A stretch of DNA of 43,298 nucleotides from Parcubacteria group bacterium GW2011_GWF2_45_11. GTDB taxonomy: Bacteria; Patescibacteriota; Patescibacteriia; UBA1558; UBA10009. The position numbers and the translations under genes were made by a program. The notes under the pieces were generated by a model that was given only the letters and a program-made list of their open reading frames with translations, ran no database searches and was not told where the DNA came from. Location: positions 1 to 43,298 of the forward strand of contig LCKE01000015.1 in NCBI GenBank assembly GCA_001001205.1, given 5' to 3'. The stretch's first letter is position 1. Each line of letters begins with the position of its first letter. Below are positions 14,927 to 29,801 of this stretch, piece after piece.

Positions 14927-16150
14927 TTATTCGTATCTCAAAGCTTCAATCGGATTTAAACGCGCTGCGCGCTGAGCCGGATAATAGCCAAAAATAATGC
15001 CAATCGCACCGGAGACGCCAAAGGCCAAAACTACCGAAGACAAAGTCACGGCCGTGGTCATGCCGCCAAATTTGTTGATTAAAGAAGCAATCAGCCAGCC
15101 CAACAGCAGGCCGAACAAACCGCCCAGGAAAGTCAGCATGACCGCTTCGGTTAGAAATTGACGGCTGATATCCTTGTTTTTAGCCCCTAAGGATTTGCGC
15201 AAGCCGATTTCCCTGGTCCTTTCGGTGACGGTGGTCAGCATCATATTCATAATGCCGATACCGCCGACTAGCAAAGAAATGCCGGCGATCGCCCCTAAGA
15301 GCAAAGTAAAAATGCCGGCGGCCGAAGAAACGGCGGAAAGAATATCCGCCTGATTTAAAATGGTAAAATCAACGGCACTGACGTCTTTAATGTTGTGCCT
15401 GACCATCAATAAATCATTAATCTGCTGTTGAACCATGGACATCAGTTCCGCCGATTGAACTTCCACGTTAATAGTGCTAACGGCATCACTGCCCGTTAAA
15501 TATTGCTGAGCCGTGGATAAAGGCACGTAAATCAGATCATCGGAACTGCCAAAGCCGCTGCCGCCCTTGGCTACGGTCACCCCAATAACGGTAAACTCAA
15601 TTTTATCAATCCGCACTTTTTGACCAACGGCGGCGGGCAGTTCCGGAAACAGGGTCGTTTTTGTTTCCGGTCCTAAAATGGCTACTTTGGAACGGCTTTT
15701 GACCTGCTGACTGCTTATAAAAGAACCCTCCGTCAAAGCCAGGCTTTGCACCGCCTGATACTCCGGTCCTACGCCATAAATGCTGGTATTGGTATTATTG
15801 CCTTTGACCGTTACCTGTTTTCGGGTGGAAACGTCTGGGGCGACGTTTTTAATATTCGGCACGGCGCCGGCGATAGCCTCGGCATCGGCTAAAACCAATG
15901 TGGAAGCCGAACCGAAACCGCTCCTGACCTGCGTGCCCACGGCCCGTTGCGCCCCGGGCATGACCATCAATAAATTGGAGCCCAAGGCCTGAAAATTGCT
16001 TTCAATATCTTGTTGCGCGCCCCGGCCGACGGAAATCATGCCGATAACCGAGCCGATGCCGATAACAATGCCTAAAATGGTCAGGCTGGAGCGGACTTTA
16101 TTGGCGGTTAACGAGGCAACTGTTTCCTTAAGCAAATCAGTGAACAACAT
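14927..16150 (-). CDS. ABC transporter permease, MacB/FtsX type
   Basis: 407 aa. TM1, a large periplasmic domain and 3 C-terminal TM helices ending in an FtsX-like motif (YPAQRAARLNPIEALRYE). Confidence 0.9.
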   Translation of the reverse strand: MLFTDLLKETVASLTANKVRSSLTILGIVIGIGSVIGMISVGRGAQQDIESNFQALGSNLLMVMPGAQRAVGTQVRSGFGSASTLVLADAEAIAGAVPNIKNVAPDVSTRKQVTVKGNNTNTSIYGVGPEYQAVQSLALTEGSFISSQQVKSRSKVAILGPETKTTLFPELPAAVGQKVRIDKIEFTVIGVTVAKGGSGFGSSDDLIYVPLSTAQQYLTGSDAVSTINVEVQSAELMSMVQQQINDLLMVRHNIKDVSAVDFTILNQADILSAVSSAAGIFTLLLGAIAGISLLVGGIGIMNMMLTTVTERTREIGLRKSLGAKNKDISRQFLTEAVMLTFLGGLFGLLLGWLIASLINKFGGMTTAVTLSSVVLAFGVSGAIGIIFGYYPAQRAARLNPIEALRYE

Positions 16151-16153
16151 AAT

Positions 16154-16855
16154 TTATACAATTCGTCTGTTAAAATTTTTCTCGTCGGAAATTATCTGGC
16201 CGTCCTGGATTTTAATAATTCTATCGGCGTGTTCCGCCACGTAACGTTCGTGAGTGATTAAAACAATAGTATGACCCTGCCGACGGTTAAGCCGCTGAAA
16301 GGTGTTTAAAACAATTTCGCCAGTTTGAGAATCTAAATTGCCGGTCGGCTCGTCCGCCAAAATAAGATCGGGAGAATTAACCAAAGCCCGGGCAATAGCC
16401 ACCCGTTGCATTTGACCGCCGGAAAGCTGGTTGGAAAGGTGCTGCCAGCGGTCTGCCGACAGACCGGCCGCCGTTAAGGCCGCCTGAGCTTTAAGTTGGC
16501 GTTCCGCTTTGGGTACCAGCGGATTATAAATCAAAGGTAGCATGACGTTCCTTAACACAGAAGTGCGGGATAATAAATTAAAGGACTGAAAAACAAAACC
16601 GATTTTTTGCGATCTGATTTCGGCCAGCTGATTATCGGATAGCTTAAACATATCCTGGCCGTTAAATTCGTACTGGCCCTCGGTCGGCCGGTCCAAGGCG
16701 CCCAAAATATGCATCAGGGTTGATTTACCCGAACCGGAAGGCCCCATAATGGCCACAAATTCGCCGCGGCCGAGGCTAAACGAAACATCCTTTAAAACTT
16801 TAAGGTCTGCTTCGCCGGTTTTGTAAATTTTTATCAAATGCCGACAAGTGATCAT
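16154..16855 (-). CDS. ABC transporter ATP-binding protein (MacB/LolD-like)
   Basis: Walker A GPSGSGKST, signature LSGGQMQRVAIARAL and Walker B LILADEPTGNLD. Confidence 0.95.
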   Translation of the reverse strand: MITCRHLIKIYKTGEADLKVLKDVSFSLGRGEFVAIMGPSGSGKSTLMHILGALDRPTEGQYEFNGQDMFKLSDNQLAEIRSQKIGFVFQSFNLLSRTSVLRNVMLPLIYNPLVPKAERQLKAQAALTAAGLSADRWQHLSNQLSGGQMQRVAIARALVNSPDLILADEPTGNLDSQTGEIVLNTFQRLNRRQGHTIVLITHERYVAEHADRIIKIQDGQIISDEKNFNRRIV

Positions 16856-18633
16856 TTGGGTATCATGCGAATCATGGTACGCATTTCGTTATTTTGATTG
16901 TTGCCGCCGCCGAATGAAGTCTGGATGCTGGCGGTGGCAGCGCTGTGGCCGTTAATTGTCTGGGTGACGATCTCGTCGCCCACATTCAGGCCGGAGACTA
17001 TTTCCGTAGATAAATCGCCGGCCAAACCGATTTCCACCGGCTGGGGCTGAAGCAACCCGTCTGTCATAACTTCCACGTAATAAATATCCCCCTGGCTCTT
17101 AAGAGCGGAGTTAGGCACAATGATAATGTCCTGCTTAAAATCGGTGATGATATTGGCCGATAAGCTCATGCCCGGCTTAATCCGTTCATCCTGGGCGTCA
17201 AAGGCCACGGTGACGTCGTAGCCGACTACCCCGGAAGAGACCTCGCCCAAAGTATCAATATCAGCCACCTCGCCGCTCAGGCTAAAATCTTCCACGGCAT
17301 CAAAAGTTAAAGTCACTTTTTGGCCTAAGGCCACCTGAGCGATATCCACTTCATTTAAAGAAATTACGGCCAGCTGTTTGGTGGTGATCAGGGAGGCCAA
17401 AACCGTGCCAGTAGAAACCTGATCACCCAGATGAACGTCGGTTTCGGCTACCACGCCGTCAAAAGGCGCGCGGACATAATAATCAGCTAAATTTTCCTTG
17501 GCGTCGGCTAGGGCGTTTTCTTTCTGCTTGAAAAAAATTCTTTGTGATTCAATGTCCAGTTCGTCTTCACCGGCTAAAAGCTGGTTGTGAGAAACATTTT
17601 TTTCCTCAATCTCCCTGTCCGCGTCAATAATGGACTGCTTATATGCGCTGATGGCATTGACCATGTTCAGCAGGCTGGAAACCTGACCGTTGGCCAACGA
17701 GGTGTTGGCGGCCAAAGTTGATTGATACTCCAAAACCTGGCTATAAACCCTTTTATTTCTTTGGGAGCGATAGTCAACCCAATAATCCAGCATATTGGTC
17801 ATCTTTTTAATGGAATCGGTAATTAATTTGGCAGTAGCCAGAGATTCATCCAATAAAATACCGATGGTTTCTTTGTCGGAGGATCGGCTTGACCGGCTAT
17901 AATGATCAAGGTTGAGATCATAAGCGCGGCGGGCGTCCTGGTAAGCGCTTTCGGCGTTGTCAAGATAACTCTGCATGGCTTCCTGCTCGTTATAATCAGC
18001 ATAAGCGATGGCATTCAACAAAGCCGATTTATTGTTTGTAAGTGCCAAGCCGGTTTCGCCGTCGGCAATTTCATAACTGTATAGGGTGCCATCCAAATCG
18101 CTCATAATGTCGGGAAAATCCAAAAAGGCGTCGGTAATGGCGTTATAACTGTCTTCAAAAGACTCGGCCAAATCGCTGACCGCCTGTTCTTTGGTCTCCT
18201 CGGCCTTGGCTAAAGCATGTTCTGACTGCAAAAGCTCAAGCTCATTGGCCGGTTTTAACAATTTTTCCAAAGACAGCCTGGCGCTGGCCAAATTAGCCTC
18301 GGCGTCCCTGACGCTTTTTAAAACCTCACTAGCATCAAGCTGAACCAATAAAGTCGCGGTTTTAACTGCCTGCCCCTTGGTCATGCCCAAATAAACAATG
18401 TCTCCCGAAGTTCTGGGCGACAGGTCTATCTGCTGGGAAACAGTCACTTGGCCACTGCCGGAAACGACCGCGGAAAGAGTGCCTGAGGCTACGGTCTGCG
18501 TCATATAACTTATTTCGTCCTGTACGGGCTTAAAATTCCGGTAAGCCCAGATCGCTCCAATGGCGATGACAACCAGAATAAAAATGGCTGATTTTTTATG
18601 GCCCGTGATCAATGCTTTGACTTTAGCAATCAT
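16852..18633 (-). CDS. HlyD-family periplasmic adaptor (membrane fusion protein)
   Basis: 593 aa. N-terminal TM helix, a very long coiled-coil middle and beta-barrel/lipoyl-like ends. Its stop overlaps the ATPase start by 4 nt. Confidence 0.8.
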   Translation of the reverse strand: MIAKVKALITGHKKSAIFILVVIAIGAIWAYRNFKPVQDEISYMTQTVASGTLSAVVSGSGQVTVSQQIDLSPRTSGDIVYLGMTKGQAVKTATLLVQLDASEVLKSVRDAEANLASARLSLEKLLKPANELELLQSEHALAKAEETKEQAVSDLAESFEDSYNAITDAFLDFPDIMSDLDGTLYSYEIADGETGLALTNNKSALLNAIAYADYNEQEAMQSYLDNAESAYQDARRAYDLNLDHYSRSSRSSDKETIGILLDESLATAKLITDSIKKMTNMLDYWVDYRSQRNKRVYSQVLEYQSTLAANTSLANGQVSSLLNMVNAISAYKQSIIDADREIEEKNVSHNQLLAGEDELDIESQRIFFKQKENALADAKENLADYYVRAPFDGVVAETDVHLGDQVSTGTVLASLITTKQLAVISLNEVDIAQVALGQKVTLTFDAVEDFSLSGEVADIDTLGEVSSGVVGYDVTVAFDAQDERIKPGMSLSANIITDFKQDIIIVPNSALKSQGDIYYVEVMTDGLLQPQPVEIGLAGDLSTEIVSGLNVGDEIVTQTINGHSAATASIQTSFGGGNNQNNEMRTMIRMIPK

Positions 18634-18644
18634 AAGATTAAAAA

Positions 18645-19403
18645 TTAATATAAAGATTTAAACGGCCGCACCTTAATAACTTTATCGCCCAAAAACATCG
18701 GCGGCCGCAGGCGCGCCGGCAAAATCTGCCTGGCTTCAAAATCAAACTCATCCACTTGACGACCTAACATTTTAATCATGTTATGCAGGCGTAAATCAGG
18801 CATGGTCCTAAAATCCTCCGGCCTGAACTGAACGTGCCACTGCTGTTGGCCGGCATCCAAAAGCCTAAATTCATCCGACGATTCCACTTTAATAATCACG
18901 CCCGCCAGAAAGCCTTTTTCCGGCGACAGCCAGATTCTGGCGCGCGGACCCAGCAAAAAACGGTACAGGTGCGAACGGTAAATTAAAGCCTCGTCAATCA
19001 CCTGACCAAAACCCAAACTGTAAAAAATACCGCCCAAAAAAATGCTGGCGATAACGCTGATGACGGTCAGCTTAAAAACGCTTAAACGATAGCCTTTTTT
19101 GGTATGCTGAAAATAGTAATAAGCCACACCCATAAACAATGCCAAACAGATAAACCAAAAATAGGGTAAAGTGACCAAAATAAACCCGAGCAGGCTGTCA
19201 TTAATATCCCGATAAATATCCCAGTCGTTATTCAGCATCATATGAATAATGACCGCGGCGGCAAACGCGCCCACCAGCAAAGCGAAAATGCCGGCCGTCC
19301 AGACCGCGTAATCTTTAAGCAAAAACTGCCAGCGGGGCCTTGGCTTAATGGCTTGAACTTTAATGGTTTGAATGACGTCCTGGCCTAAATTTTTTTCCAT
19401 CAT
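18645..19403 (-). CDS. hypothetical membrane protein (possible anti-sigma partner)
   Basis: 252 aa with 4 hydrophobic helices, immediately downstream of the ECF sigma gene. No zinc anti-sigma motif was seen, so the function is inferred from position only. Confidence 0.45.
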   Translation of the reverse strand: MMEKNLGQDVIQTIKVQAIKPRPRWQFLLKDYAVWTAGIFALLVGAFAAAVIIHMMLNNDWDIYRDINDSLLGFILVTLPYFWFICLALFMGVAYYYFQHTKKGYRLSVFKLTVISVIASIFLGGIFYSLGFGQVIDEALIYRSHLYRFLLGPRARIWLSPEKGFLAGVIIKVESSDEFRLLDAGQQQWHVQFRPEDFRTMPDLRLHNMIKMLGRQVDEFDFEARQILPARLRPPMFLGDKVIKVRPFKSLY

Positions 19404-19419
19404 ATTTTAAAATATTATT

Positions 19420-20016
19420 TTACAAAAATTGGACATGAATATCTTTGTGCCGCTCAAACTCCGCTCTGAATTTATCCTTGGCTTTATTAAGCAAAGTGCC
19501 CACCGTGCCCATCGGTTTTTTTAAAATATCGGAAATTTCCCGGTAATTCTTATCTTCAAAGTATTTTAAAACAATGACCTCTCGATATTTCTCATCCAGC
19601 CGGTTCAAAACTTTATAAATATCCGCCCGTAAGAGTGCAAGCTCAACATCCGCCTCAAGATTCAAAGAGGAAATCAGGCTGTCTATCAGCTGGCTGTTTT
19701 CACCCAAAGCCAAGCCGACAGGCCGAGCCTTAAGCCGGCGGTAATGGCTGATGACCTGATTATGCGTAATGCGATAAATCCAGGATGAAAATTTAAGATC
19801 CGGATCAAAATCGTTGAGTTTCAAGTAAACCTTGATAAAAACTTCCTGTAGCACATCCTCGGCGTCTTCGGCCGAGACGCCGGAAATCCGCCTAATATAC
19901 CGCAAAAGCTTAGTTTCGTAACGCTGGACTATAAATAAAAAATTGTCCTGATTTTGTAAGGACAGACGGACAAGCTCGGCATCGCTTTTGCCTAAGACAT
20001 CATTTGGTCTGCTCAT
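19420..20016 (-). CDS. RNA polymerase sigma factor, ECF/sigma-70 family
   Basis: 198 aa. Region 2 (DAEDVLQEVFIKVYLKL, SWIYRITHN) and region 4 HTH (YREISDILKKPMGTVGTLLNKAK). Confidence 0.9.
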   Translation of the reverse strand: MSRPNDVLGKSDAELVRLSLQNQDNFLFIVQRYETKLLRYIRRISGVSAEDAEDVLQEVFIKVYLKLNDFDPDLKFSSWIYRITHNQVISHYRRLKARPVGLALGENSQLIDSLISSLNLEADVELALLRADIYKVLNRLDEKYREVIVLKYFEDKNYREISDILKKPMGTVGTLLNKAKDKFRAEFERHKDIHVQFL

Positions 20017-20224
20017 AGGCTTATAATGTATATACGCCCTTGAAACAATTATTATTTTAAGTTTTTAATTCAAAACATTGGACAGCCGGCTGAAATCATA
20101 AGGCATAAATCCGGCGCCACCTGAAATATACCTAGCTTTAATATTTTAGTAAATCCAGTCGCCAGCCTAATTAAAGTGGTTAGTGGTTAATTTTAAAAAC
20201 GTGAATAGCGAAATTAGTTTTTCC

Positions 20225-20452
20225 TCAAGAAATAGCCATAATCTGGTAGCCTAAGAGGATTCTAACATAGTGAAGCAGATAACCGGCGACTGATCTTGGG
20301 AATGAGCTGACCAGGTTAAGATGTTCTTTTAAGTAATCAAAGACAGATTCAATCTTAGGTCTGGTTCTAAGTAAGGCATATTGCCAATCAGTGATTAATT
20401 TTTTGTTCTGTTTAAAGTGAGGCTGTGAAACAACTAAAGTGCCATAGGTCAA
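20225..20452 (-). pseudogene. IS982-family transposase, C-terminal part in a shifted frame
   Basis: Continues the transposase (RPKIESVFDYLKEHLNL). It is open only after a 1-nt frame change near 20452-20475. Confidence 0.7.
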
Positions 20453-21045
20453 AGATATGCTTTCTCATTACACTGGCTCACGTAGCCTCCGTCGTCAACC
20501 GCTACATTGGCATACTGATTAAGAATTTTAGGCATCTGCTGGGAGTCAGCATAGCTGGCCGGAGTTAAAGCTAAACCGCAAAGCTGTCTGTCTAAATTAA
20601 TACTGGCGTGAAGTTTGAATCCATAATGCCAGCCTTGGTGATTTTTACCGAAATCAGCAACATTTAAAGCTGTTTTATGCGAATCAGCCCTGACTAATTT
20701 ACACACTTGAAGCATTGTTGAATCCATTATTCTGACAGTGGAAGTTGACTGAAGTAAATCGTTTAAAACCTTACTCATTAAAGGTAAAATTCTGTGGCAA
20801 TGTTTAACGAAATTTTCATAGCAAGGCAGATGAGGAAATTCACTTTGATACTCTAAATTAATCCAGTAATAAATATCCTTTAAATTTCTTTGTTTAACCG
20901 TTAAAATATTCCAAATCAAGATGGTTATTAATTCACTATTAGCTAAACAGCTTAATCTGCCGGTTTTAGCCAGACTAGGCTTAGGCAGGGCATCATCTAC
21001 CCAAACATACAAATTTATGATATGTTTTTTATTAAGAACAAGCAT
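20449..21045 (-). CDS. IS982-family DDE transposase, N-terminal part (frameshifted)
   Basis: Motifs MDSTMLQVC, GWHYGFKLH, LTPASYADS and DDGGYVS match the IS982 transposase pattern as I recall it. The frame ends at 20449. Confidence 0.8.
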   Translation of the reverse strand: MLVLNKKHIINLYVWVDDALPKPSLAKTGRLSCLANSELITILIWNILTVKQRNLKDIYYWINLEYQSEFPHLPCYENFVKHCHRILPLMSKVLNDLLQSTSTVRIMDSTMLQVCKLVRADSHKTALNVADFGKNHQGWHYGFKLHASINLDRQLCGLALTPASYADSQQMPKILNQYANVAVDDGGYVSQCNEKAYL

Positions 21046-21140
21046 TTTGGTTTTGGTTAAGGCTATTAAGACACCTTAATTATATCAAAAAGCTTGTTTT
21101 TATTAGAGAAAGTTAATTTCGCTATTCACGTTCTATATTA

Positions 21141-21195: not shown

Positions 21196-21642
21196 ATGAA
21201 TTACAATAAAGTTAGCCAATTTTTTTCTAAAATCAAAAACGATCGGGCTGGTTTTAGTCTGACTGAATTAATGGTCACAATGGGCATTATCGGCTCAATC
21301 GCCACTGTTTCTACGGCGCAAATGGACGATCATTTGCCGGCCGCGAGAGACGCCCAAAGAAAGGCCAATATCCACCAGGTGCAAACTGCTTTAAACTTAT
21401 ATTATGACGATCATTTGACTTATCCGGTGACTGACGATTTTGAGCCGACTGCCATGGGCTGGCAGATGATTACGACAATCTTGGAAAATGAAAACAAGAT
21501 GTATATGCCTGAAGTGCCGGAAGATCCATTAAACACGGACCAATACGTCTTTACCTACTGGAGCGATGGCCAGACCTTTAAAATCAACTATGAAACCGAA
21601 GACCCGGCTGACCCATCGCCCCTGACCGCCTGGGGCGCGTAA
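21196..21642 (+). CDS. type IV pilin / pseudopilin with prepilin-type N-terminal methylation motif
   Basis: 148 aa. Leader ...NDRAG then FSLTELMVTMGIIGSIATV, the class III signal peptide pattern G|F..E plus a hydrophobic helix. Confidence 0.85.
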   Translation: MNYNKVSQFFSKIKNDRAGFSLTELMVTMGIIGSIATVSTAQMDDHLPAARDAQRKANIHQVQTALNLYYDDHLTYPVTDDFEPTAMGWQMITTILENENKMYMPEVPEDPLNTDQYVFTYWSDGQTFKINYETEDPADPSPLTAWGA

Positions 21643-21692: not shown

Positions 21693-21931
21693 TAAGGAAA
21701 AATGATTAACCTGCTCTCCATAAAGCCGGCGCCTGTGCTAGAGGATATTAAACCATCTAGACAAGAAGCCGAATAAAAAGCTGGCAGGGCATCTTTGGCG
21801 CCATGTTACAGTTTAAATTCACGCCCCTGGCCTTAACCTTTTGCACACCCGGCTGGTTACAGGCTTGCGCATTCTTATTTTGGCTGGCCTTGGGCATATG
21901 CTGATGGATGGCTGATTGATAAAACTAAATC

Positions 21932-21966
21932 AAAAAATCCCCGTTGGCGTCGGCCGGGGATTTTTG
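21932..21966. terminator. bidirectional terminator
   Basis: AAAAAATCCCCG...CGGGGATTTTT: a 7-bp GC stem flanked by A6 and T5. It lies 25 nt beyond the end of the minus-strand ATP-grasp operon. Confidence 0.55.
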
Positions 21967-21990: not shown

Positions 21991-22275
21991 TTATAGCTTG
22001 ATTGATGAAGGTTTGGCTAAAAAAATTCGGCCATTCTTTATTGTTACGCCGCCTTTAGCCGGATCATCTTTAAAATCAAAGTGGCCGCTGTCCAACTCCA
22101 CATAATCCAAATCCAGAGCTAAAGCCAGGGCAACGCTGGTGGTAATGGAAATATTGGATTTGTTAATACAACCCATCATAATAATTTTTCTAAAACGTTT
22201 AGCCTGCTGGGCTACCAACCCTTGAACACCCGCCGGATCTTTTGATAATGATATTTCAATGAGGAAAGCGGCTGA
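21991..22275 (-). pseudogene. C-terminal remnant of an enolase-superfamily dipeptide (L-Ala-D/L-Glu-type) epimerase
   Basis: The open frame encodes only about 95 aa: ...IEISLSKDPAGVQGLVAQQAKRFRKIIMMGCINKSNISITTSVALA...LDLDYVELD. This resembles the last barrel strands of MLE/dipeptide epimerases. The N-terminal ~250 aa are absent and there is no ATG (TTG only). Confidence 0.55.
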
Positions 22276-22334
22276 TCAAAAAAATCAAAGCTTAACTTAT
22301 GAAGTTTATATATTAACCTCAAAATCCATCATAA

Positions 22335-23711
22335 TTATTTTGGTAAATTTTTAGCGAATGATTTTAACTCTTCATTAAAAATTTTAAAAAGCCGGGCCTG
22401 GTATGGTAAAGGTAAATTATAGTTTTCATGAATTTTTGAAAAATATCTTTTATACCAAGGCCAGGGTTTAAGCACGGGCAATTTATTTTTTTTGAATAAC
22501 TCATGATAAATCGAGGGCACCTGACGTTTATAAGCCGCATAAAAAGCAAAATCCAGTTCAATTACGGAACCGCTTTTAACGTCACTGCCAAAATAATGAT
22601 TAAACATACCTTTCTTTAAAAGCAAATCCTTCTTAAAACCGAGATTAAAAGGATTCAGGCCACAGGCTCTGGCAAACAAAAACATTCTGGCGCATTTATA
22701 ACAATTGTGGCACCACTGCGAACCTTTTAAAAGAGGCTTTTCGGCGCTGCAAGAAAATTGCATCTGGCCCAGCTTGGGATAACGGTGATGCAGAATGTAA
22801 AAAATATTTACTTCTTCCAACGGCTGCAGGCTGCTTTTGACCTGAGCCTGGCCGTTGGTAAACAATCTGGCCATATTATCCTGCAACGCCATGACTGCCG
22901 CAGTCTGGTCGGCGGACAAAAACGCCTTAAAACCCTCAATAAATTCAAACTCATTATTGGCAAATTCACTGCCAAAAAAGATGTAACCGGCGCGGTGAGC
23001 CAAAACAAAAGGCAGGGCCAGCAGGGTTAAAATAGAAGTTTGCGAACCCCAGCCCAGTTCGGTTGATGAATTTTTAAACCAGGCGCGGCCGTAGCGAAAC
23101 AGTCCCGGCTCATGTTGCAAAAAATAAACCGGAACCTTAATCAACCGGCTCAGACTGGCCAGTTGTCTTTTTTTATAAGATTCTTCGTAGGGCTGAACCG
23201 GCTCCTGGGAATAGAATAAAACCGGCCGCAAGCCGATTTCCAAAGACAAGGCCAGCGTGGTTAAACTTTCCTTGCCAAAAGTAAACGGAATAACCACAGT
23301 TTTTGGATCAAACGAAAATGGCCGGCCGGTTTTTGCCTTTGGCCAGCGGCTGATTGATGAAGCAAAGGAAAATGTCAAATTATAAAACCGGCGCAGATAG
23401 CTTAAAGGCTTAACCTTGTCGGTCTTTTCGCAAATCAGCATGTCTAAAAGCTGATTTTTGTAAAATATCGGTTCAAAAAGAGGATAATTGGTAGAATAAT
23501 CAACGCCTGATTTTTTTAACATCAGCGGTAAATAATGAGTTTCGGCGAAAGTCAGGTTATCTAAAAGAAACTTCTTAAGCCAAATAGGAGTCGATTGCCA
23601 GATTTTTTTAGGATAAACAATGGGAAACTTTCTTTGTTCCACTATAATATCCAAACCTTGCCTGGTTAAACAACCCCCAACTGATAAAGTCTGAGTGGTT
23701 TTTGTTTTCAT
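22335..23711 (-). CDS. uncharacterized protein with PP-loop-like (QueC/ExsB-like ATP pyrophosphatase) core
   Basis: 458 aa. Strand-loop-helix VVIPFTFGKESLTTLALSLEIG mimics the SGGxDS PP-loop. A C-terminal Cys cluster C-x12-C-x2-C-x2-C (SCSAEKPLLKGSQWCHNCYKC) resembles the QueC Zn site. Its start overlaps the upstream stop by 4 nt. Confidence 0.7.
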   Translation of the reverse strand: MKTKTTQTLSVGGCLTRQGLDIIVEQRKFPIVYPKKIWQSTPIWLKKFLLDNLTFAETHYLPLMLKKSGVDYSTNYPLFEPIFYKNQLLDMLICEKTDKVKPLSYLRRFYNLTFSFASSISRWPKAKTGRPFSFDPKTVVIPFTFGKESLTTLALSLEIGLRPVLFYSQEPVQPYEESYKKRQLASLSRLIKVPVYFLQHEPGLFRYGRAWFKNSSTELGWGSQTSILTLLALPFVLAHRAGYIFFGSEFANNEFEFIEGFKAFLSADQTAAVMALQDNMARLFTNGQAQVKSSLQPLEEVNIFYILHHRYPKLGQMQFSCSAEKPLLKGSQWCHNCYKCARMFLFARACGLNPFNLGFKKDLLLKKGMFNHYFGSDVKSGSVIELDFAFYAAYKRQVPSIYHELFKKNKLPVLKPWPWYKRYFSKIHENYNLPLPYQARLFKIFNEELKSFAKNLPK

Positions 23712-26152
23712 AATGAAAAATTATATAAATTGTAATCGAAAGATTTTTTTTGATAGCGCTTAACGGCTAAAACGATAAGTTGTTCCAATAAGTCACCATA
23801 ATCCTCGCCAACCAGCTTAGCCGCCGCCGGCAACATGGCCTTAGGACTTAAGGAGGGATTGGGATTCAATTCCAAAACGTAAGGATTGTTATTTTTATCT
23901 ACCTTGATTTCCACCCGGCCGTAGTCATGACAATCCAAAATGCTGTAAGTGTCCAAAGCAATCTCGCTGATTAAGGAACTGAGCTTGACGTTGATGTTTT
24001 TGGCCGGCTCCTGCAGTTCAATATTATTTTTATAGATCGGATCGTTTAAAAACTTGGCTTCGAAAGGATAAATATGCCAGTAGCCTGCGGGCAACTTATC
24101 AAAAATTGAACGGGAAAGCGGCAAAACCCTGAGGTCCTTTTCTTCGCTGCCTAAAATAGCCACGTCATATTCGTCGCCTTCTATGTATTCTTCAATCAAC
24201 GCCGGGCGCTTAAGCTCCACAATCACCTGTTTAAGCTGCCTTTTAAGTTCGGCCGGATTGGTCACCACCGAATCGTTGGAAATGCCGGTGGAGTTATCGG
24301 TGTTGGAGGGCTTAACAATCAGCGGATATTCCAGATCAGCCCTAATCTCTTCGTCTAAAGAATAAACGTAATCCCATTTAGGCGTAGGGATATTATGGTA
24401 AGTCAAAAGTTTCTTGACTTTGATTTTATCAATACAAATGCCAAGAGTCAGGGGATTGGAGCCGGTATAAGGTATTTGCAGAGTATCCAGCAAAGCGGCA
24501 ACGTGCGGTTCCAGCAAACTGGAGCCGTTAATTCTTTCGCAGACGTTAAAGGCCAAATCAATATTGCTTTCCTTAAGTTCCTGATAGGCCTTGGCCACGT
24601 TATTAAAGTCAAAAAGGGTCACCTGATAACCGCGTTCGGCTAGCACTTCCATCATCTGGTTACCTACAGAAGCCGGCTCGTTCTGTACCGTGCCCTCAAT
24701 CCCGGCAAAATTATTGCCGATAATGCCAATCCTAAAATCCCGTTTGTCCTTAAGAACCAAACGGCGGATATTTTCTATCTTAGCCGCGCCTTTAAGAATA
24801 TTAGTATTAATGGCGGCCATGGAAAAACGGTTTTTACGCGACGTCTTGCCGATGGAAGAGGCCGGATCGTATTTGGCCACCTCAAATTTTATGTCTTTAA
24901 GCACTTCCTCCAAATTTTCTTCGGCGTCCAAATCGTTATAACCTTGGACTGTAACCCAGCCCATATATTCATAGCCTTCGGGCGGCACTAAAACTGAATC
25001 ACCCACTTCTTTAAAGATAAATAAATCCACGATATTTTTATTAGTCTTTAGTTTTTCATCCAGATCCAGCTTAACCAATAACCCTGAATGGGGCGGGGTT
25101 AAAGTCTGGCTAATAAGATACTTATAAGGCTCTTCGGGCTTAATCACTTTATCCAGATAAATGCCGATGGCAATTTTTAAAGCCCCATCAATCAAATCAA
25201 CATGCCAGGCCTCTTTGGAAAAAGCAAAAGCCTCGTCGCCGCCCAGGCGTAAATTCACTTCCAAGGGCATGGGGCCGGTTTTGGTGATTTTAGCTTCAAA
25301 ATGAACACAACCGTTCTGTACGCCCAATTTTTCCAAGATCTTTTCCGCCATTTCCACTAATTTATCCTGATCTTTGTCGGGCAAACTGGAAGGCACCGCT
25401 TCCTGAGTTTCAATAAAAAACGGTTCTTCCGTCTTAAAATTATCAACGATGGAAAAAAACTTCAGCTTGCCATTCTGCAAAAGCATGTCAATATCCACTT
25501 CATTGCCGTCAATATATTCTTCCACCATGATATCCATACCGTCAGCCAAGGCTGATTCGCCGGTCGTGGAAATATTTTTCTTGACGTAATTATAAATCTC
25601 CTGCAATTCCTCAAAATTCTCGGCCTTAACCACGTAGGCGCTACTGGAGCCGTAAGTCGGCTTAATCACCAAAGGAAAAACGAAATTATTCTGAACATAC
25701 TCCATATCTTCAGGGGCTTTGACCAACTTATAACGCGGGGCCGGCAAACCATGGCTGACGCAAAACTCCCTGAATAAATGCTTATTTCTAGCCTTCTTCG
25801 CCACGTCAAAAGGAATTCCGATAAAATTAAAACGGTCACAAATTCTGGCAGTCAGCAGAACATCATCCTCCCAAAAAGTCATTACGCCGTCCACGTTAAC
25901 CTTTTGCTTGTCCTGTAAAAAAACCTTGACCGCCTGCAAGGCTTCCTGATGATTACCGGTATCCGCCAAAATCCACTGGTCAACGTAAGGCTGGGCCCAG
26001 CTGACTATTTCCTTATTAAGCACAATAAGATGAAGGCCTAATTTTTTAATGCGCTGGACAATAAATTTCTTTTTGATTGAGCCGGTATTGACCAACAGGA
26101 TGGTTTTGCCTGAAAGTTCGCCGTTTTGTCCGACGATTTTGCCGTTTTTCAT
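23708..26152 (-). CDS. fused double ATP-grasp ligase (carnosine-synthase/L-amino-acid-ligase-like N-module plus D-Ala-D-Ala-ligase-like C-module)
   Basis: 814 aa. N half: VDGVMTFWEDDV, FPLVIKPTYGSSSAYV, MVEEYIDGNEVDIDML, PLEVNLRLGGD. C half: RIGIIGNNFAG, PYTGSNPLTLGICIDK, YPLIVKPSNTDNSTGI, IEEYIEGDEYDVAILG, YVLELNPNPSL. Confidence 0.88.
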   Translation of the reverse strand: MKNGKIVGQNGELSGKTILLVNTGSIKKKFIVQRIKKLGLHLIVLNKEIVSWAQPYVDQWILADTGNHQEALQAVKVFLQDKQKVNVDGVMTFWEDDVLLTARICDRFNFIGIPFDVAKKARNKHLFREFCVSHGLPAPRYKLVKAPEDMEYVQNNFVFPLVIKPTYGSSSAYVVKAENFEELQEIYNYVKKNISTTGESALADGMDIMVEEYIDGNEVDIDMLLQNGKLKFFSIVDNFKTEEPFFIETQEAVPSSLPDKDQDKLVEMAEKILEKLGVQNGCVHFEAKITKTGPMPLEVNLRLGGDEAFAFSKEAWHVDLIDGALKIAIGIYLDKVIKPEEPYKYLISQTLTPPHSGLLVKLDLDEKLKTNKNIVDLFIFKEVGDSVLVPPEGYEYMGWVTVQGYNDLDAEENLEEVLKDIKFEVAKYDPASSIGKTSRKNRFSMAAINTNILKGAAKIENIRRLVLKDKRDFRIGIIGNNFAGIEGTVQNEPASVGNQMMEVLAERGYQVTLFDFNNVAKAYQELKESNIDLAFNVCERINGSSLLEPHVAALLDTLQIPYTGSNPLTLGICIDKIKVKKLLTYHNIPTPKWDYVYSLDEEIRADLEYPLIVKPSNTDNSTGISNDSVVTNPAELKRQLKQVIVELKRPALIEEYIEGDEYDVAILGSEEKDLRVLPLSRSIFDKLPAGYWHIYPFEAKFLNDPIYKNNIELQEPAKNINVKLSSLISEIALDTYSILDCHDYGRVEIKVDKNNNPYVLELNPNPSLSPKAMLPAAAKLVGEDYGDLLEQLIVLAVKRYQKKSFDYNLYNFSL

Positions 26153-26270
26153 AAATCAAAAAAGCTAAAGACTAGCTTTTGAATTAAGTTATTAAATTTT
26201 TTAATTAAAGTTAATTGGTTTTGGAAAGCCCCGGGGGGCTGGTCGTCACTATCCATAATGTTATAGCAAT

Positions 26271-26298
26271 ATTATAAATCTTCTAAAACGGTTGTCAA
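26271..26298 (-). promoter_or_regulatory. near-consensus sigma70 promoter for the ATP-grasp operon
   Basis: On the minus strand: TTGACA (26298-26293), 16 nt spacer, TATAAT (26276-26271). The leader is about 110 nt. Confidence 0.55.
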
Positions 26299-26333
26299 GA
26301 ACAGATAATGGCTGGCTATATTTTACGACGCCG

Positions 26334-26342
26334 TGATATAAT
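26334..26342 (+). promoter_or_regulatory. extended -10 promoter (TGaTATAAT) for the recombinase gene
   Basis: TGATATAAT at 26334-26342. It lies inside the 5' extension of the long ORF, which argues for the internal start at 26425. Confidence 0.4.
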
Positions 26343-26424
26343 AGAAAGTGAAACTAGGAAACATATCCGTCCGACTCGTTGTCGTGGCAAGCGGGCATGT
26401 TACGTATTGCATCCTACATTCTTT

Positions 26425-27255
26425 ATGCAAAAATACTTTAATTACCTCAAGAGCCGGGGCTTAAGCCAGCGAACCGTCCGCAACTACCGTTTTTATTTAG
26501 CAAGGTTTTTTAACTTTGCCAAAATCGCCAATGGTTCGGACATTACGGTCGCAAAAATCACCGCTTTTACCCGTTATTTAAGCCAAATACAAATCAATCA
26601 TCGGCCTTTAAGCCAGTTGACCAGAAATTACCATCTGATCGCCTTAAGGTCATTGTTAAAATACCTGGAGCAGCAAAAACTTCCCAAACTGCCGGCGGCC
26701 AAAACCGTGGTCTTGGCCAAAACCGAGCGCCGTCCGCAGACCTTGATTAACGCTGACCTCAACAAACTCCTGGCCGCTCCCCTAAAATTCAATAACCCCA
26801 AAATCGTCAAAAGCCGCGACAAGGCGATTCTGGAACTGCTTTTTGCCACCGGCTTAAAAGTCAGTCGCCTGAGCGGGCTGACAAGGTCATGCCTTAACCG
26901 AGTTACGGGACACCTTAAAGCCAGTTCAAAAAAATGCCAGCTGTCGCATCAGGCGCTTTACTGGCTCAAGGAATATCTTAATTTACGCACAGACAACCAT
27001 CCGGCTTTATTCTTAAGCCACGACCGGGCCGCCCGGAGACGGAGCAAAATCAGCAACCTCAGCCCCCGCTCGGTCCAAAGGCTGGTGGAAAAGTACGCCA
27101 AATCCGCCGGGCTTAATAAAAAAATCACCCCCGAGACCTTAAGACGCGCCTATGCCAACCGGCTGCTCGGCCTAGGGCTGAACGTTCAAGAACTGCAAAA
27201 AAAGCTGGGACACCGTTCAATCAACGCCACCAATCTGATGTATAAGAAAAAATAA
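26425..27255 (+). CDS. tyrosine site-specific recombinase, XerC/XerD-like
   Basis: SAM-like N-domain (YLKSRGLSQRTVRNYRFYLARFF). Catalytic C-domain with ...LRRAYANRLL..., LGHRSINATNLMY (R..H-x-x-R..Y pattern). The ORF is open from 26308 but the first 39 aa look non-native. Confidence 0.85.
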   Translation: MQKYFNYLKSRGLSQRTVRNYRFYLARFFNFAKIANGSDITVAKITAFTRYLSQIQINHRPLSQLTRNYHLIALRSLLKYLEQQKLPKLPAAKTVVLAKTERRPQTLINADLNKLLAAPLKFNNPKIVKSRDKAILELLFATGLKVSRLSGLTRSCLNRVTGHLKASSKKCQLSHQALYWLKEYLNLRTDNHPALFLSHDRAARRRSKISNLSPRSVQRLVEKYAKSAGLNKKITPETLRRAYANRLLGLGLNVQELQKKLGHRSINATNLMYKKK

Positions 27256-27428: not shown

Positions 27429-27503
27429 GCCCTGGTAGTTCAACGGATAGAATAGGAGCCTTCTAAGCTCTAGATCAAGGTTCGATTCCTTGCCAGGGCA
27501 CCA
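27429..27503 (+). tRNA. tRNA-Arg(UCU)
   Basis: Acceptor GCCCTGG/CCAGGGC, anticodon loop CTTCTAA, T-loop TTCGATT, CCA encoded. Confidence 0.93.
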
Positions 27504-27524
27504 ATCTGACTTTTAAATTAATTT

Positions 27525-27601
27525 GTCCCCGTAGCTTAACTGGATAAAGCGCAGGGTTCCGGTCCCTGAAACTGTAGGTTCAAGTCCTGCCGGGGACACC
27601 A
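27525..27601 (+). tRNA. tRNA-Arg(CCG)
   Basis: Acceptor GTCCCCG/CGGGGAC, anticodon stem CAGGG/CCCTG, loop TTCCGGT, T-loop TTCAAGT, CCA encoded. Confidence 0.93.
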
Positions 27602-27725
27602 TATAACCGAGCCGAGCTCGGCAACAAGAAGCAAAATCCAATTGCCAAATAAATTTGAATGCTCATATTGTTTGTAACTTGTATCTTGTAACTGGTGTCT
27701 TGGGAATTTATCACTTATCAATCGC

Positions 27726-27801
27726 GGTGGCTATGGTGTAACGGTTAACACAGCGGGTTGTGGTCCCGCTAATCTGGGTTCAATTCCCAGTAGCCACCCC
27801 A
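27726..27801 (+). tRNA. tRNA-His(GUG)
   Basis: Encoded G-1 (GGTGGCTA...TAGCCACCCCA), anticodon stem GCGGG/CCCGC, loop TTGTGGT. Confidence 0.93.
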
Positions 27802-28010: not shown

Positions 28011-28492
28011 CCCCGAGCTTACGCTCGGGGTATTAGCCGAACGCAAGCTTCGCTTGTCCAGAGTCCTCTTGCCCCTGCTGCTCAATATATCGCCTAATAA
28101 CCTTCAGACCAGACGCTGTCGGTGCCCCAATAGGCCTCTTTGACGAACGGGAATTTTTGCTTCAATGATTTGGCGGTATTGCTCTTTATTATCCTGACCG
28201 CATTACCCACTGACATCGTGGGAGGAATGGAGACCAAAAGGTGAATATGGTCAAAATCGTGATTAACCGTCTTACAGCTAATTAGTGGGTAATGCTTGTG
28301 AATTTCATCAAGCTTGGTCTCCAAATAGGCAAAAATTCCCTCGTTAAATATCCTCTTTCGATATTTAGTCACTAAAACAAGGTGGTAATCGCAATAGTAG
28401 ACACAATGGCTAAGTCTTGTCACTTCCATACCTTACAGTATGAGGCAAGAGGACTCTGGAATCAACTCCATCCCACGGCCTTACGGCCGGGG
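28011..28492 (-). mobile_element. IS200/IS605-family element (tnpA only), decayed
   Basis: Subterminal hairpins with an identical GTAA loop on the element strand: CCCCGAGC-GTAA-GCTCGGGG (28011-28030) and CCCCGGCC-GTAA-GGCCGTGGG (28472-28492). A 17-bp inverted repeat GGCAAGAGGACTCTGGA (28057-28073 / 28444-28460) brackets tnpA. Confidence 0.75.
28094..28429 (-). pseudogene. tnpA: IS200/IS605 Y1 (HUH) transposase TnpA, C-terminally disrupted
   Basis: HUH motif DHIHLLVSIPP is present. The frame stops after ...VWSEGY. The expected C-terminus VIRRYIEQQGQ..., with the catalytic Tyr, is readable only in another frame (about 28040-28100). About 12 codons (FVSTVG...) are missing. Confidence 0.8.
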
Positions 28493-29399: not shown

Positions 29400-29554
29400 G
29401 GTTTTAATAGGTTAATAAATTAATTGGGTCATAGATTGAGGAAAATCTGGGAAAGGAATCAAGCCCCCAAAATCCAATACAAATTAGTCGCCGAGTCCGC
29501 CGAAAAGGCGGATATACTCCGCGAGGTGAACTAAAACTCTTTAACTTTTCATTC

Positions 29555-29648
29555 TGGAGCCGACGGTCGGATTCGAACCGACGACCTACAGTTTATGCCG
29601 CCCTTGGCGGCACCCCGCCGAAGGCGGTGGCAAAACTGTTGCTCTACC
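29555..29648 (-). pseudogene. partial tRNA-Thr(UGU) copy A with a 35-nt insert in the anticodon loop
   Basis: The 3' half at 29555-29595 is 41/41 identical to the intact gene. The 35-nt insert is at 29596-29630. Then 18 nt, GGTAGAGCAACAGTTTTG (29631-29648). The acceptor 5' strand and D-stem 5' strand are absent. Confidence 0.85.
29596..29630 (-). repeat. 35-nt two-hairpin GC-rich mini-insert (copy in Thr-UGU fragment)
   Basis: Plus strand TGCCGCC-CTT-GGCGGCA CCCCGCC-GAA-GGCGGTGG. It is 32/35 identical to 30349-30383, and all 3 differences fall in the hairpin loops. Confidence 0.85.
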
Positions 29649-29659
29649 TGCCGAACGAC

Positions 29660-29716
29660 TGGAGCCGACGGTCGGATTCGAACCGACGACCTACAGTTTA
29701 TGCCGCCCTTGGCGGC
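29660..29716 (-). pseudogene. partial tRNA-Thr(UGU) copy B: 3' half plus one hairpin
   Basis: The 3' half at 29660-29700 is 41/41 identical. It is joined at the same anticodon-loop position to TGCCGCCCTTGGCGGC (29701-29716). It shares the trailer GTCGTTCGG with the intact gene. Confidence 0.85.
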
Positions 29717-29725
29717 CCGAACGAC

Positions 29726-29801
29726 TGGAGCCGACGGTCGGATTCGAACCGACGACCTACAGTTTACAAAACTGTTGCTCTACCAACTGAGCTACGTCGG
29801 C
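29726..29801 (-). tRNA. tRNA-Thr(UGU)
   Basis: GCCGACG TA GCTC AGTTGGTA GAGC A ACAGT TTTGTAA ACTGT AGGTC GTCGG TTCGAAT CCGAC CGTCGGC T CCA. Confidence 0.93.

Follow-up and report, generated by a model that had tools for sequence, protein, structure and literature searches.

RESULTS

A ligase and MurL-like gene pair in a Parcubacteria genome

In a stretch of 43,298 nucleotides (nt) from Parcubacteria group bacterium GW2011_GWF2_45_11 (GenBank assembly GCA_001001205.1, contig LCKE01000015.1, positions 1 to 43,298; hereafter the window), the minus strand at 21991-26298 carries three consecutive open reading frames (ORFs) of 814, 458 and 75 amino acids (aa). The first encodes a fusion of two ATP-grasp ligase modules and the second a PP-loop protein, and the two together form a module that is widely conserved in Patescibacteria; the third is what is left of a dipeptide epimerase gene, and only the core pair survives intact in this genome. 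Profile comparisons indicate that, among characterised proteins, the 458-aa protein stands closest to MurL, which epimerises the C-terminus of peptides in an ATP-dependent manner, and not to QueC. That the conserved pair consists of a ligase and a MurL-superfamily adenylating enzyme acting on a small peptide seems to us decidedly probable. The fuller reading, in which the genes would be a conserved module of the Candidate Phyla Radiation (CPR) that makes a short peptide with a D-residue in three steps, without ribosome or nonribosomal peptide synthetase (NRPS), stands in our judgement at an even chance.

The features of the locus, all on the minus strand, are as follows.

23708..26152, minus strand: 814-aa fused double ATP-grasp ORF (ORF listing)
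24788..26152, minus strand: N-terminal L-amino-acid-ligase (LAL)-type ATP-grasp module, aa ~1-455 (Pfam and alignments with solved LALs)
23708..24745, minus strand: C-terminal ATP-grasp module of the D-Ala-D-Ala ligase (Ddl) type, aa ~470-814 plus stop (Pfam, NCBIfam, 3r23)
22335..23711, minus strand: 458-aa protein, assigned to the MurL family of PP-loop proteins (AlphaFold2 model, Foldseek, hhalign)
23265..23285, minus strand: variant PP-loop F143-T-F-G-K-E-S149, equivalent of SGGxDS (alignment of 34 homologues)
22692..22751, minus strand: C321-x12-C334-x2-C337-x2-C340 cluster, probable metal site (alignment of 34 homologues)
21991..22218, minus strand: 75-aa ORF, epimerase remnant (tblastn with intact syntenic orthologues)
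21991..22334, minus strand: pseudogene of an enolase-superfamily (L-Ala-D/L-Glu-epimerase-like) dipeptide epimerase (tblastn)
26271..26298, minus strand: sigma-70-type promoter match, TTGACA-16 nt-TATAAT (consensus match, 12/12)
about 21930-21966, minus strand: intrinsic-terminator-like hairpin followed by U6 (RNA fold)

An earlier reading of this DNA, made from its letters and its ORFs (the original prediction), had described an operon with its own signals, and these signals were found again. The stop codon of the 814-aa ORF and the start codon of the 458-aa ORF share letters in an ATGA overlap, read in TCATTATGAAAACA. The near-consensus promoter at 26298..26271 scores 12 of 12 consensus positions and lies ~120 nt 5' of the 814-aa start codon, an assignment by consensus match only, and the terminator hairpin has a folding energy of −16.4 kcal/mol (z −2.86 against shuffles) ahead of its U6 tract.

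Predicted fold of the 458-aa protein

The 458-aa protein gave no significant match in Pfam (best DUF6395, 0.028) and nothing relevant in NCBIfam, and neither phmmer nor a family profile found any match at E ≤ 10 among PDB sequences. In a collection of 5.8 billion proteins, 105 homologues were found, all of them unannotated, and those with an organism name belong to Patescibacteria. Alignment of 34 homologues revealed invariant residues in three regions, F143, G146 and K147 within P-F-[TS]-F-G-K-E-S (E148 and S149 conserved in at least 90%), E176 and E249 (the latter in G-[NS]-E; the D268-Q269 pair conserved in at least 90%), and C321, W333, C334, C337 and C340. The TFGKES loop and the C-x12-C-x2-C-x2-C cluster, both picked out in the original prediction, are therefore real, being conserved in the 34 homologues; TFGKES is a variant of SGGxDS that grades into TGGKES and SGGKES among relatives. 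The four-Cys cluster presumably resembles the zinc site of QueC.

An AlphaFold2 model built from the family alignment (pLDDT 91.4, pTM 0.91) places the TFGKES motif between strand 135-142 and helix 147-158. When the model was compared with the PDB by Foldseek, the top matches were PP-loop ATPases only (QatC, QueC, Cap9, YcfA and TtuA, probability ~1.0), followed by MnmA and NMN synthetase, the range of probability for QueC, QatC, Cap9, YcfA, TtuA and MnmA being 0.9-1.0. In the model, the protein thus has a Rossmann-like PP-loop ATPase core, and the PP-loop fold that had been proposed from the sequence is present. The label QueC-like held for this fold, but not for the nearest relative, which appears to be MurL. 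The QueC family of Pfam (PF06508) did not match the window protein, with a single relative at 0.058, below the cut-off, and neither the window nor the 56 related loci described below had a queD, queE or queF neighbour. We also considered a defence role of the QatC or Cap9 type and rejected it, because PADLOC models matched neither the 814-aa nor the 458-aa protein and no QatA, QatB, QatD, CD-NTase or CBASS (cyclic-oligonucleotide-based anti-phage signalling system) genes adjoin in the window or the 56 loci.

Profile links to MurL

Three distant family members carry precomputed matches to PF26298, which is labelled MurL_epimerase_C in the neighbourhood table, and in the 5.8 billion sequences the family profile reaches proteins with both PF26298 and PF26299 at ~1e-13. 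When the family was aligned by hhalign with such a two-domain protein, a probability of 98.4% (E 4e-15) was obtained over 299 columns, running from the PP-loop to the C-terminus and including the GNE and Cys motifs. The MurL-domain proteins P0109-P0111 show L-T-G-G-K-E-S, G-N-E-Y-S and C-x10-C-x2-C-x2-C at these places. Proteins with PF26298 and PF26299 match NF041275, the NCBIfam equivalog model of Xanthomonadales MurL, at 3e-26 and 4e-30, and the same model is matched directly by 22 of the 34 aligned family members (best 9.6e-12) as well as by a paralogue encoded within related clusters (3.6e-8), which shares 30% identity with the window protein (3e-49). Homology to the MurL Pfam domains PF26298/PF26299 is thus reached through profile-profile and transitive links. 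An exhaustive search with the family profile collected 171 clusters (at 50% identity) at E ≤ 1e-30 and 1,595 at E ≤ 1e-3. These results point to the 458-aa protein as a relative of MurL within one superfamily, not a MurL orthologue. A search with P0111 for the MurL of Xanthomonas returned environmental MurL-domain proteins only.

MurL is an ATP/Mg-dependent enzyme that releases AMP and works in one direction, from L to D; it was described as having no recognised conserved domains, adenylation of the alpha-carboxylate was proposed for it, and its gene adjoins murD2, which encodes the ligase that adds the L-Glu (PMC5808125, PMC8788868). Neither MurD2 nor any other Mur ligase was found as a neighbour in any of the 56 related loci.

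The fused double ATP-grasp ligase

The 814-aa protein contains two complete ATP-grasp modules, as had been claimed (ATP-grasp_4 at 1e-31 and 3vot for the first, Dala_Dala_lig_C at 3e-38 and 3r23 for the second). The first, aa ~30-430, also matches ATPgrasp_N (2e-6) and LAL_C2 (4e-11) in Pfam, and it aligns with residues 19-397 of the 425 of the L-amino-acid ligase BL00235 (3vot, 3e-27) and with BacD at 7e-16. By these alignments it possesses what defines a LAL structurally, namely the ATP-grasp domains, the LAL-specific C-terminal domain and a full-length alignment, in agreement with the carnosine-synthase/LAL type proposed earlier. The second, aa ~483-800, aligns with many solved D-Ala-D-Ala ligases, the best being the Ddl 3r23 at 1e-26. 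Its scores fall below the Ddl cut-offs of NCBIfam (207.3 vs 243 bits for PRK01372, 170.2 vs 245.65 for TIGR01205).

For the C-terminal half, 34 fused proteins (the window protein and 33 orthologues) were then aligned with E. coli DdlB. The ATP/Mg residues K97, K144, E180, E187, K215, R255, E270 and N272 of DdlB are kept in the window protein and D257 is replaced by Glu; among the 34 proteins these residues are conserved in 24-34, except for R255 (20/34) and D257 (Glu in 26/34). The residues for D-Ala specificity are altered (S150 to N, Y216 to F, S281 to A, L282 to M in the window protein); most orthologues have W at the Y216 position, S281 and L282 vary among the fused proteins, and the column of DdlB E15 is ambiguous. 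This pattern suggests that the Ddl-type module is very probably an active ligase, and, since S150 and Y216 are replaced, that it is no D-Ala-D-Ala ligase in the strict sense. The assignment to the D-Ala-D-Ala ligase type therefore stood as to the fold family, but not as to the D-Ala-D-Ala ligase itself, and a role as the housekeeping D-Ala-D-Ala ligase was rejected on the loss of these two residues and the scores below the family cut-offs. Of the 106 positions at which at least 94% of the 33 orthologues agree, 105 are retained in the window protein, showing that the 814-aa protein is intact and that the arrangement did not come about by chance.

Conservation of the pair and its companion genes

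One genome for each GTDB species (185,579) was scanned with a strict motif, which gave 56 loci, titled mostly as Patescibacteria lineages. The other labels (about nine 'uncultured Gammaproteobacteria', three Bdellovibrionota, and single Pseudomonadales, Vicinamibacterales and Woesearchaeota) may be mis-assignments. In 32 of the 56, the gene for a fused double ATP-grasp protein (~780-890 aa) immediately precedes that of the homologue on its strand, with a median gap of ~5 bp and overlapping frames in 8. A single LAL-type ligase takes the place of the fused protein in three loci, one (L009) has the ligase downstream, and in two (L010 and L019) the ligase is present and the anchor gene was missed by ORF calling; most of the 15 loci lacking a ligase fall in a subfamily at ≤33% identity. 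The fused ligase and MurL-like pair is thus a widely conserved module of Patescibacteria.

Companion genes were counted over 59 loci (the window, L005, L006 and L009-L064), in which neighbours were clustered and representatives annotated. An intact enolase-superfamily epimerase of the Thermotoga type (~350 aa) follows in 16 related loci, the remnant in the window being the 17th case, which suggests that the ancestral three-gene form carried an intact epimerase. A pair consisting of a ~430-aa ATP-grasp protein and a LysA-like pyridoxal-phosphate (PLP) decarboxylase occurs in 22 loci, a divergent DegT-like PLP protein in 16, a FemAB-like acyltransferase in 7 and a SET-domain protein in 6, and some clusters include a second MurL-like paralogue. 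The families include a dipeptide epimerase and a Ddl-type module, and D-residue chemistry appears to be the theme of the cluster. No LysA-like decarboxylase, DegT-like protein, third ATP-grasp or FemAB-like protein is encoded in the 43-kb window.

Fuller clusters were seen at L012 7544-16210, L025 7584-16131, L039 3093-13057 and L044 7367-15735, in the order double ATP-grasp, MurL-like (one or two), intact MR_MLE epimerase, DegT-like PLP protein, ~430-aa ATP-grasp and LysA-like decarboxylase. The DegT-like protein of these clusters has no Pfam match of its own and shows D131...S153-x-R-K156; PurD-like, FemAB-like and SET-domain genes recur nearby. Some loci of the distant subfamily, L008/L048 (one contig) and L062 among them, have no ATP-grasp ligase; L008/L048 is adjoined by a FemAB-like Acetyltransf_6 protein and a PLP enzyme of the alanine-racemase/ornithine-decarboxylase fold, and L062 by a FemAB-like protein only, which suggests that the partner chemistry differs in these loci. 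Most other loci at ≤33% identity have neither a FemAB-like nor a PLP partner. Homologues also occur in archaeal bins, one of 30% identity at 10001-11401 of L057 (labelled Candidatus Woesearchaeota archaeon) and an SGGKES-type relative, P0108, in Thermoplasmatota, through either horizontal transfer or mis-binning.

The recurring families bear on a rival view of the physiology, in which the module would serve peptidoglycan synthesis or salvage by supplying a D-Ala- or D-Glu-containing dipeptide to Mur ligases in CPR cells that lack racemases, with the Ddl-type module as the D-Ala-D-Ala (or D-Ala-D-X) ligase of the cell; this would be compatible with an epimerase mechanism. Ddl, MurL, L-Ala-D/L-Glu epimerase, LysA-like diaminopimelate decarboxylase and FemAB-like proteins all have archetypes linked to peptidoglycan, and the Ddl module comes near its subfamily cut-off (207 vs 243 bits). 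On the other hand, S150 and Y216 have been exchanged and the positions of S281 and L282 vary, the module has no mur, mraY or ddl-operon genes beside it in the 56 loci, and only a minority of Patescibacteria carry it (56 species matches out of 185,579 in the strict scan), a distribution more like that of an accessory trait than of an essential one. We therefore regard this role as quite unlikely. A further point against it is that at least one glutamate racemase of Saccharibacteria is said, in the title of a reference listed in PMC11974145, to be experimentally supported.

The epimerase remnant

When intact syntenic orthologues were used in tblastn, the 75-aa ORF aligned at 22203..21997 with their last ~70 residues (~280-350) at 48-63% identity (E 1e-16 to 6e-23), and a second fragment, corresponding to residues ~61-107 (best E 1e-5), was found in another frame at 22313..22179, right after the stop codon of the 458-aa ORF. 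Residues 1-60 and ~108-279 of the epimerase are missing in the window. The capping and barrel domains, intact in syntenic orthologues of 347-389 aa, are therefore incomplete in the remnant. The intact orthologues match MR_MLE_C at 3e-39, and their best NCBIfam model is that of L-Ala-D/L-Glu epimerase (2.7e-53). The window gene is, to judge from these alignments, an internally deleted and frameshifted pseudogene; it is dead, as the original prediction held, but more than the last ~95 codons is left of it, as a second, out-of-frame fragment flanks an internal deletion.

The sibling contig L066 (ENA ERZ909578, run SRR2177954, groundwater metagenome, PRJNA292723; 7.2 kb), from a near-identical strain, has the same gene order of recombinase, 814-aa ORF, 458-aa ORF (99% identical), remnant and pilin, which indicates that the window, too, stems from groundwater. 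Its remnant region is identical at 499 of 500 nt, indicating that the pseudogene is real and not an assembly error. A 25-nt direct repeat of 84% identity, containing ATTATGATGG, occurs at 22170-22194 and 22323-22347, with one copy at the ancestral start of the epimerase after the 458-aa stop codon and the other inside the surviving 3' fragment; this repeat may mark the deletion that killed the gene.

A proposed pathway to a D-residue peptide

In the three-step reading, the LAL module would first join two L-substrates with ATP, through an acyl-phosphate. The translationally coupled 458-aa MurL-family enzyme would then adenylate the free C-terminal alpha-carboxylate of the product, with release of AMP and pyrophosphate; adenylation would make the alpha-proton labile, and the peptide would be released with its last residue turned from L to D, in one direction only. 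Finally, the Ddl-type module, which comes from a family built for activating D-configured carboxylates, would add a further amine or amino acid, and in the fuller clusters the dipeptide epimerase, third ATP-grasp, LysA-like decarboxylase and DegT-like enzyme would elaborate the product. Here we infer the adenylation of a carboxylate, its outcome as epimerisation, the order of the steps and all substrates.

The logic of a ligase followed by an epimerase has its precedent in MurD2 and MurL, which supports this pathway. An engineered LAL (TabS) combined in a cascade with the Thermotoga dipeptide epimerase yields L-X-D-Y dipeptides in vitro (PMC13338154), so what a LAL makes can serve as the substrate of an epimerisation at the C-terminus. 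The original prediction had proposed two ligations through acyl-phosphates and one adenylation for the assembly or amidation of a small peptide; its general logic carries over, but the links to MurL make epimerisation likelier than amidation.

Several points weigh against the three-step pathway. What is known of the family here comes from sequence and predicted structure. Its link to MurL has gaps, in that the first ~135 residues of the 458-aa protein are not aligned with the MurL-domain proteins by hhalign, the window protein has no match to NF041275 at E ≤ 1 and its relatives score far under the 700-bit equivalog cut-off, and the motifs held in common were read in P0109-P0111, not in the Xanthomonas enzyme itself. 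In addition, PP-loop adenylates end as an amide, nitrile or thio-product more often than as an epimer, and a MurL-like and an enolase-type epimerase in one ancestral cluster look partly redundant if both inverted the same centre. The step order and the D-configured donor for the Ddl module follow family habit, the alignment at DdlB E15 being ambiguous.

A further such point is that 3 of the 34 family members weakly match the WbuX amidotransferase model (up to 5.8e-8), which also speaks for a different product of the same adenylate. The 458-aa protein could be an amidotransferase or amide-forming ligase, in which ammonia or an amine attacks the adenylated carboxylate to give a peptide amide or conjugate, as in QueC, WbuX-type N-acetyl-sugar amidotransferases, NAD and asparagine synthetases, Cap9 and QatC. 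Its nearest solved folds (QueC, QatC, Cap9 and YcfA) and the invariant QueC-like Cys cluster are consistent with this chemistry. However, the profile links to MurL are stronger and more frequent (22/34; hhalign 98.4%), no glutaminase domain or partner was found in the window or the 56 related loci, and both the D-residue theme of the cluster and the defence searches (no PADLOC match, no Qat or CBASS neighbours) argue against an amide. We accordingly judge amide formation unlikely, though the foremost of the rivals considered here.

Flanking genes and mobile elements

The module is flanked by the following features.

26308..27255, plus strand: tyrosine recombinase, divergent, flank only (Phage_integrase 2e-21, Phage_int_SAM_1 5e-11)
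27429-27801: tRNA-Arg, tRNA-Arg and tRNA-His, beyond the recombinase
20198-21132: insertion sequence (IS) element with 35-nt inverted repeats and a split DDE transposase (DDE_Tnp_1_3 7e-19)
21196-21642, plus strand: type IV pilin-like gene (N_methyl 3e-5, T2SSG 4e-4)

The Pfam matches thus bear out the flanks given in the original prediction, an insertion sequence and a pilin gene on one side and a tyrosine recombinase on the other. The inverted repeats of the IS element are imperfect (80% complementary), and its transposase, attributed to an IS982 element in the original prediction and assigned here to DDE_Tnp_1_3 at the level of the Pfam family, consists of a 198-aa and a 75-aa ORF, split by either frameshift or inactivation. 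G+C content is 0.37-0.41 at 20-24 kb and ~0.45 elsewhere in the window. A repeat search of the window found no attachment-site-like direct repeats bracketing the genes, only short, chance-level repeats besides the IS inverted repeats.

These surroundings raise the question whether the genes are in decay, carried along by a mobile or rearranged region and with no current function. The third gene is a pseudogene, the IS with its split transposase, the recombinase, tRNA genes and tRNA-fragment repeats lie nearby, G+C content is slightly lower at 20-24 kb, and the accessory genes of other lineages are absent from the 43-kb window. Nevertheless, both core ORFs are full length with every invariant family position kept, a perfect consensus promoter and a terminator are retained, many lineages carry the core pair alone, and no attachment-site-like repeats bracket the genes, which together make this explanation the least probable of those weighed here.

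The pilin-like gene raises another alternative, that a ribosomal protein or peptide has its C-terminus modified by these enzymes, much as RimK or tubulin-tyrosine ligase (TTL) would do, with the neighbouring pilin as a possible target; the ATP-grasp modules would add residues and the MurL-like enzyme would process the new terminus. A pilin-like gene lies beside the module in the window and in L001, weak RimK and TTL Pfam matches occur inside the ATP-grasp modules, and short unannotated ORFs of 29-36 aa lie beside the genes in L002 and L007. But the pilin adjacency is confined to two lineages, neighbour clustering gave no conserved family of small ORFs, the matches to RimK and TTL reflect generic ATP-grasp similarity and are far weaker than those to LAL and Ddl, and LAL_C2 is typical of ligases for free amino acids. 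We hold such a role to be improbable, only slightly less so than decay. As to the gene neighbourhoods that the original prediction had proposed to inspect, an intact epimerase co-occurs in the 16 related loci, and no conserved family of small precursor ORFs was found. A precursor in the style of peptides that are made by the ribosome and modified after translation (RiPPs) was rejected on the same clustering.

Some further observations concern the neighbourhood. The pilin-like genes beside the ligase/MurL-like module are at 21196-21642 (plus strand) in the window and 5931-6413 in L001, an adjacency that is probably coincidence. A second mobile element near the recombinase, an IS200-type Y1 transposase ORF (28094-28429, minus strand, Y1_Tnp 9e-24), lies between tRNA-His and tRNA-Trp. 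Next to tRNA-Thr(tgt) (29726-29801), the 3' half of this gene is present in two identical 58-nt copies, at 29554-29611 and 29659-29716, and alongside them a piece at 29631-29659 resembles its 5' part; on their sequence, these partial copies look like scars from repeated integration. On the minus strand, an operon-like run of ORFs at 14927-20016 includes an ECF (extracytoplasmic function)-type sigma factor (19420-20016), a 252-aa protein that has no Pfam match and is membrane-spanning by the appearance of its sequence, an HlyD-family adaptor (16852-18633) and ORFs of 233 aa (16154-16855) and 407 aa (14927-16150), one of which clusters with proteins provisionally labelled ABC-type. Our guess is that this set is an efflux or secretion unit controlled by a sigma/anti-sigma pair.

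DISCUSSION

The original prediction did not recognise the three-gene combination as a characterised pathway, and our literature searches on MurL-like, ATP-grasp and CPR clusters gave no description of a LAL-Ddl fusion, of its pairing with a MurL-superfamily PP-loop enzyme or of the extended cluster in Patescibacteria. Every part comes from a known superfamily, and the logic of ligase plus MurL has one precedent. As a tentative generalisation, which we place somewhat below an even chance, MurL would stand at the head of a large family of peptide C-terminal epimerases that have a PP-loop, are driven by ATP and work in one direction (~1,600 clusters at 50% identity within reach of the family profile). 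In Patescibacteria, such an epimerase would be set between two ATP-grasp ligations as part of an NRPS-independent assembly line for D-peptides, which could be further decarboxylated or transaminated in fuller clusters.

If the proposed pathway is right, the irreversible, ATP-paid inversion of the last residue from L to D known from MurL would gain a second and much larger context. MurL chemistry would also be placed in the PP-loop superfamily, suggesting a mechanism for MurL, which papers have described as unclear. Peptides with D-residues would be made by soluble ligases and an epimerase without NRPS or RiPP machinery, and irreversible epimerisation would improve on the 80:20 equilibrium of enolase-type epimerases (PMC13338154). 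Since tiny CPR genomes retain a multi-enzyme cluster across many lineages, the product would be important for episymbiotic life, as a cell-wall component, signal or antimetabolite. Even if the proposed pathway is wrong, the analysis annotates ~100 'hypothetical' proteins as putative adenylating enzymes of the MurL/QueC superfamily.

Comparison with known systems

Four known systems resemble parts of the module. The third gene of the ancestral operon belongs with the enolase-superfamily dipeptide epimerases (YcjG/YkfB and the L-Ala-D/L-X epimerase of Thermotoga maritima); however, the known ones serve the recycling of murein peptides and are not encoded beside ligases, and the copy in the window is dead. 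Each half of the 814-aa protein aligns from end to end of one of two kinds of stand-alone enzyme, the LALs (BL00235, BacD, TabS and RizA) or D-Ala-D-Ala ligase, and keeps the ATP-grasp catalytic residues, whereas here both types are fused in one chain and coupled to a MurL-like gene.

The QueC-like enzymes (QueC 2pg3/3bl5, QatC 9y01/9y02, Cap9 9nto and YcfA 9kq6) are the best structural matches of the 458-aa protein (E 3e-4 to 5e-3; TM, the template-modelling score, 0.5-0.7 on the target, for the core), and they have in common with it an adenylate-forming PP-loop core and a four-Cys site. They differ in sequence (13-15% identity) and in having SGGxDS in place of TFGKES, and the 458-aa protein has extra N- and C-terminal domains.

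From MurL, the module is separated by a very distant similarity, by its hosts (Patescibacteria vs Xanthomonadales or actinobacteria), by a partner that is a fused LAL-Ddl ATP-grasp protein and not a Mur-family ligase, and by the absence of a UDP-MurNAc context. The MurL-domain proteins P0109-P0111 nevertheless have in common with the 458-aa family a loop of the form [ST]-x-G-K-E-S, a GNE motif and a cluster C-x(10-12)-C-x2-C-x2-C, and in both systems the gene of the MurL-type enzyme directly adjoins that of an ATP-dependent ligase, which adds, or here would add, an L-residue.

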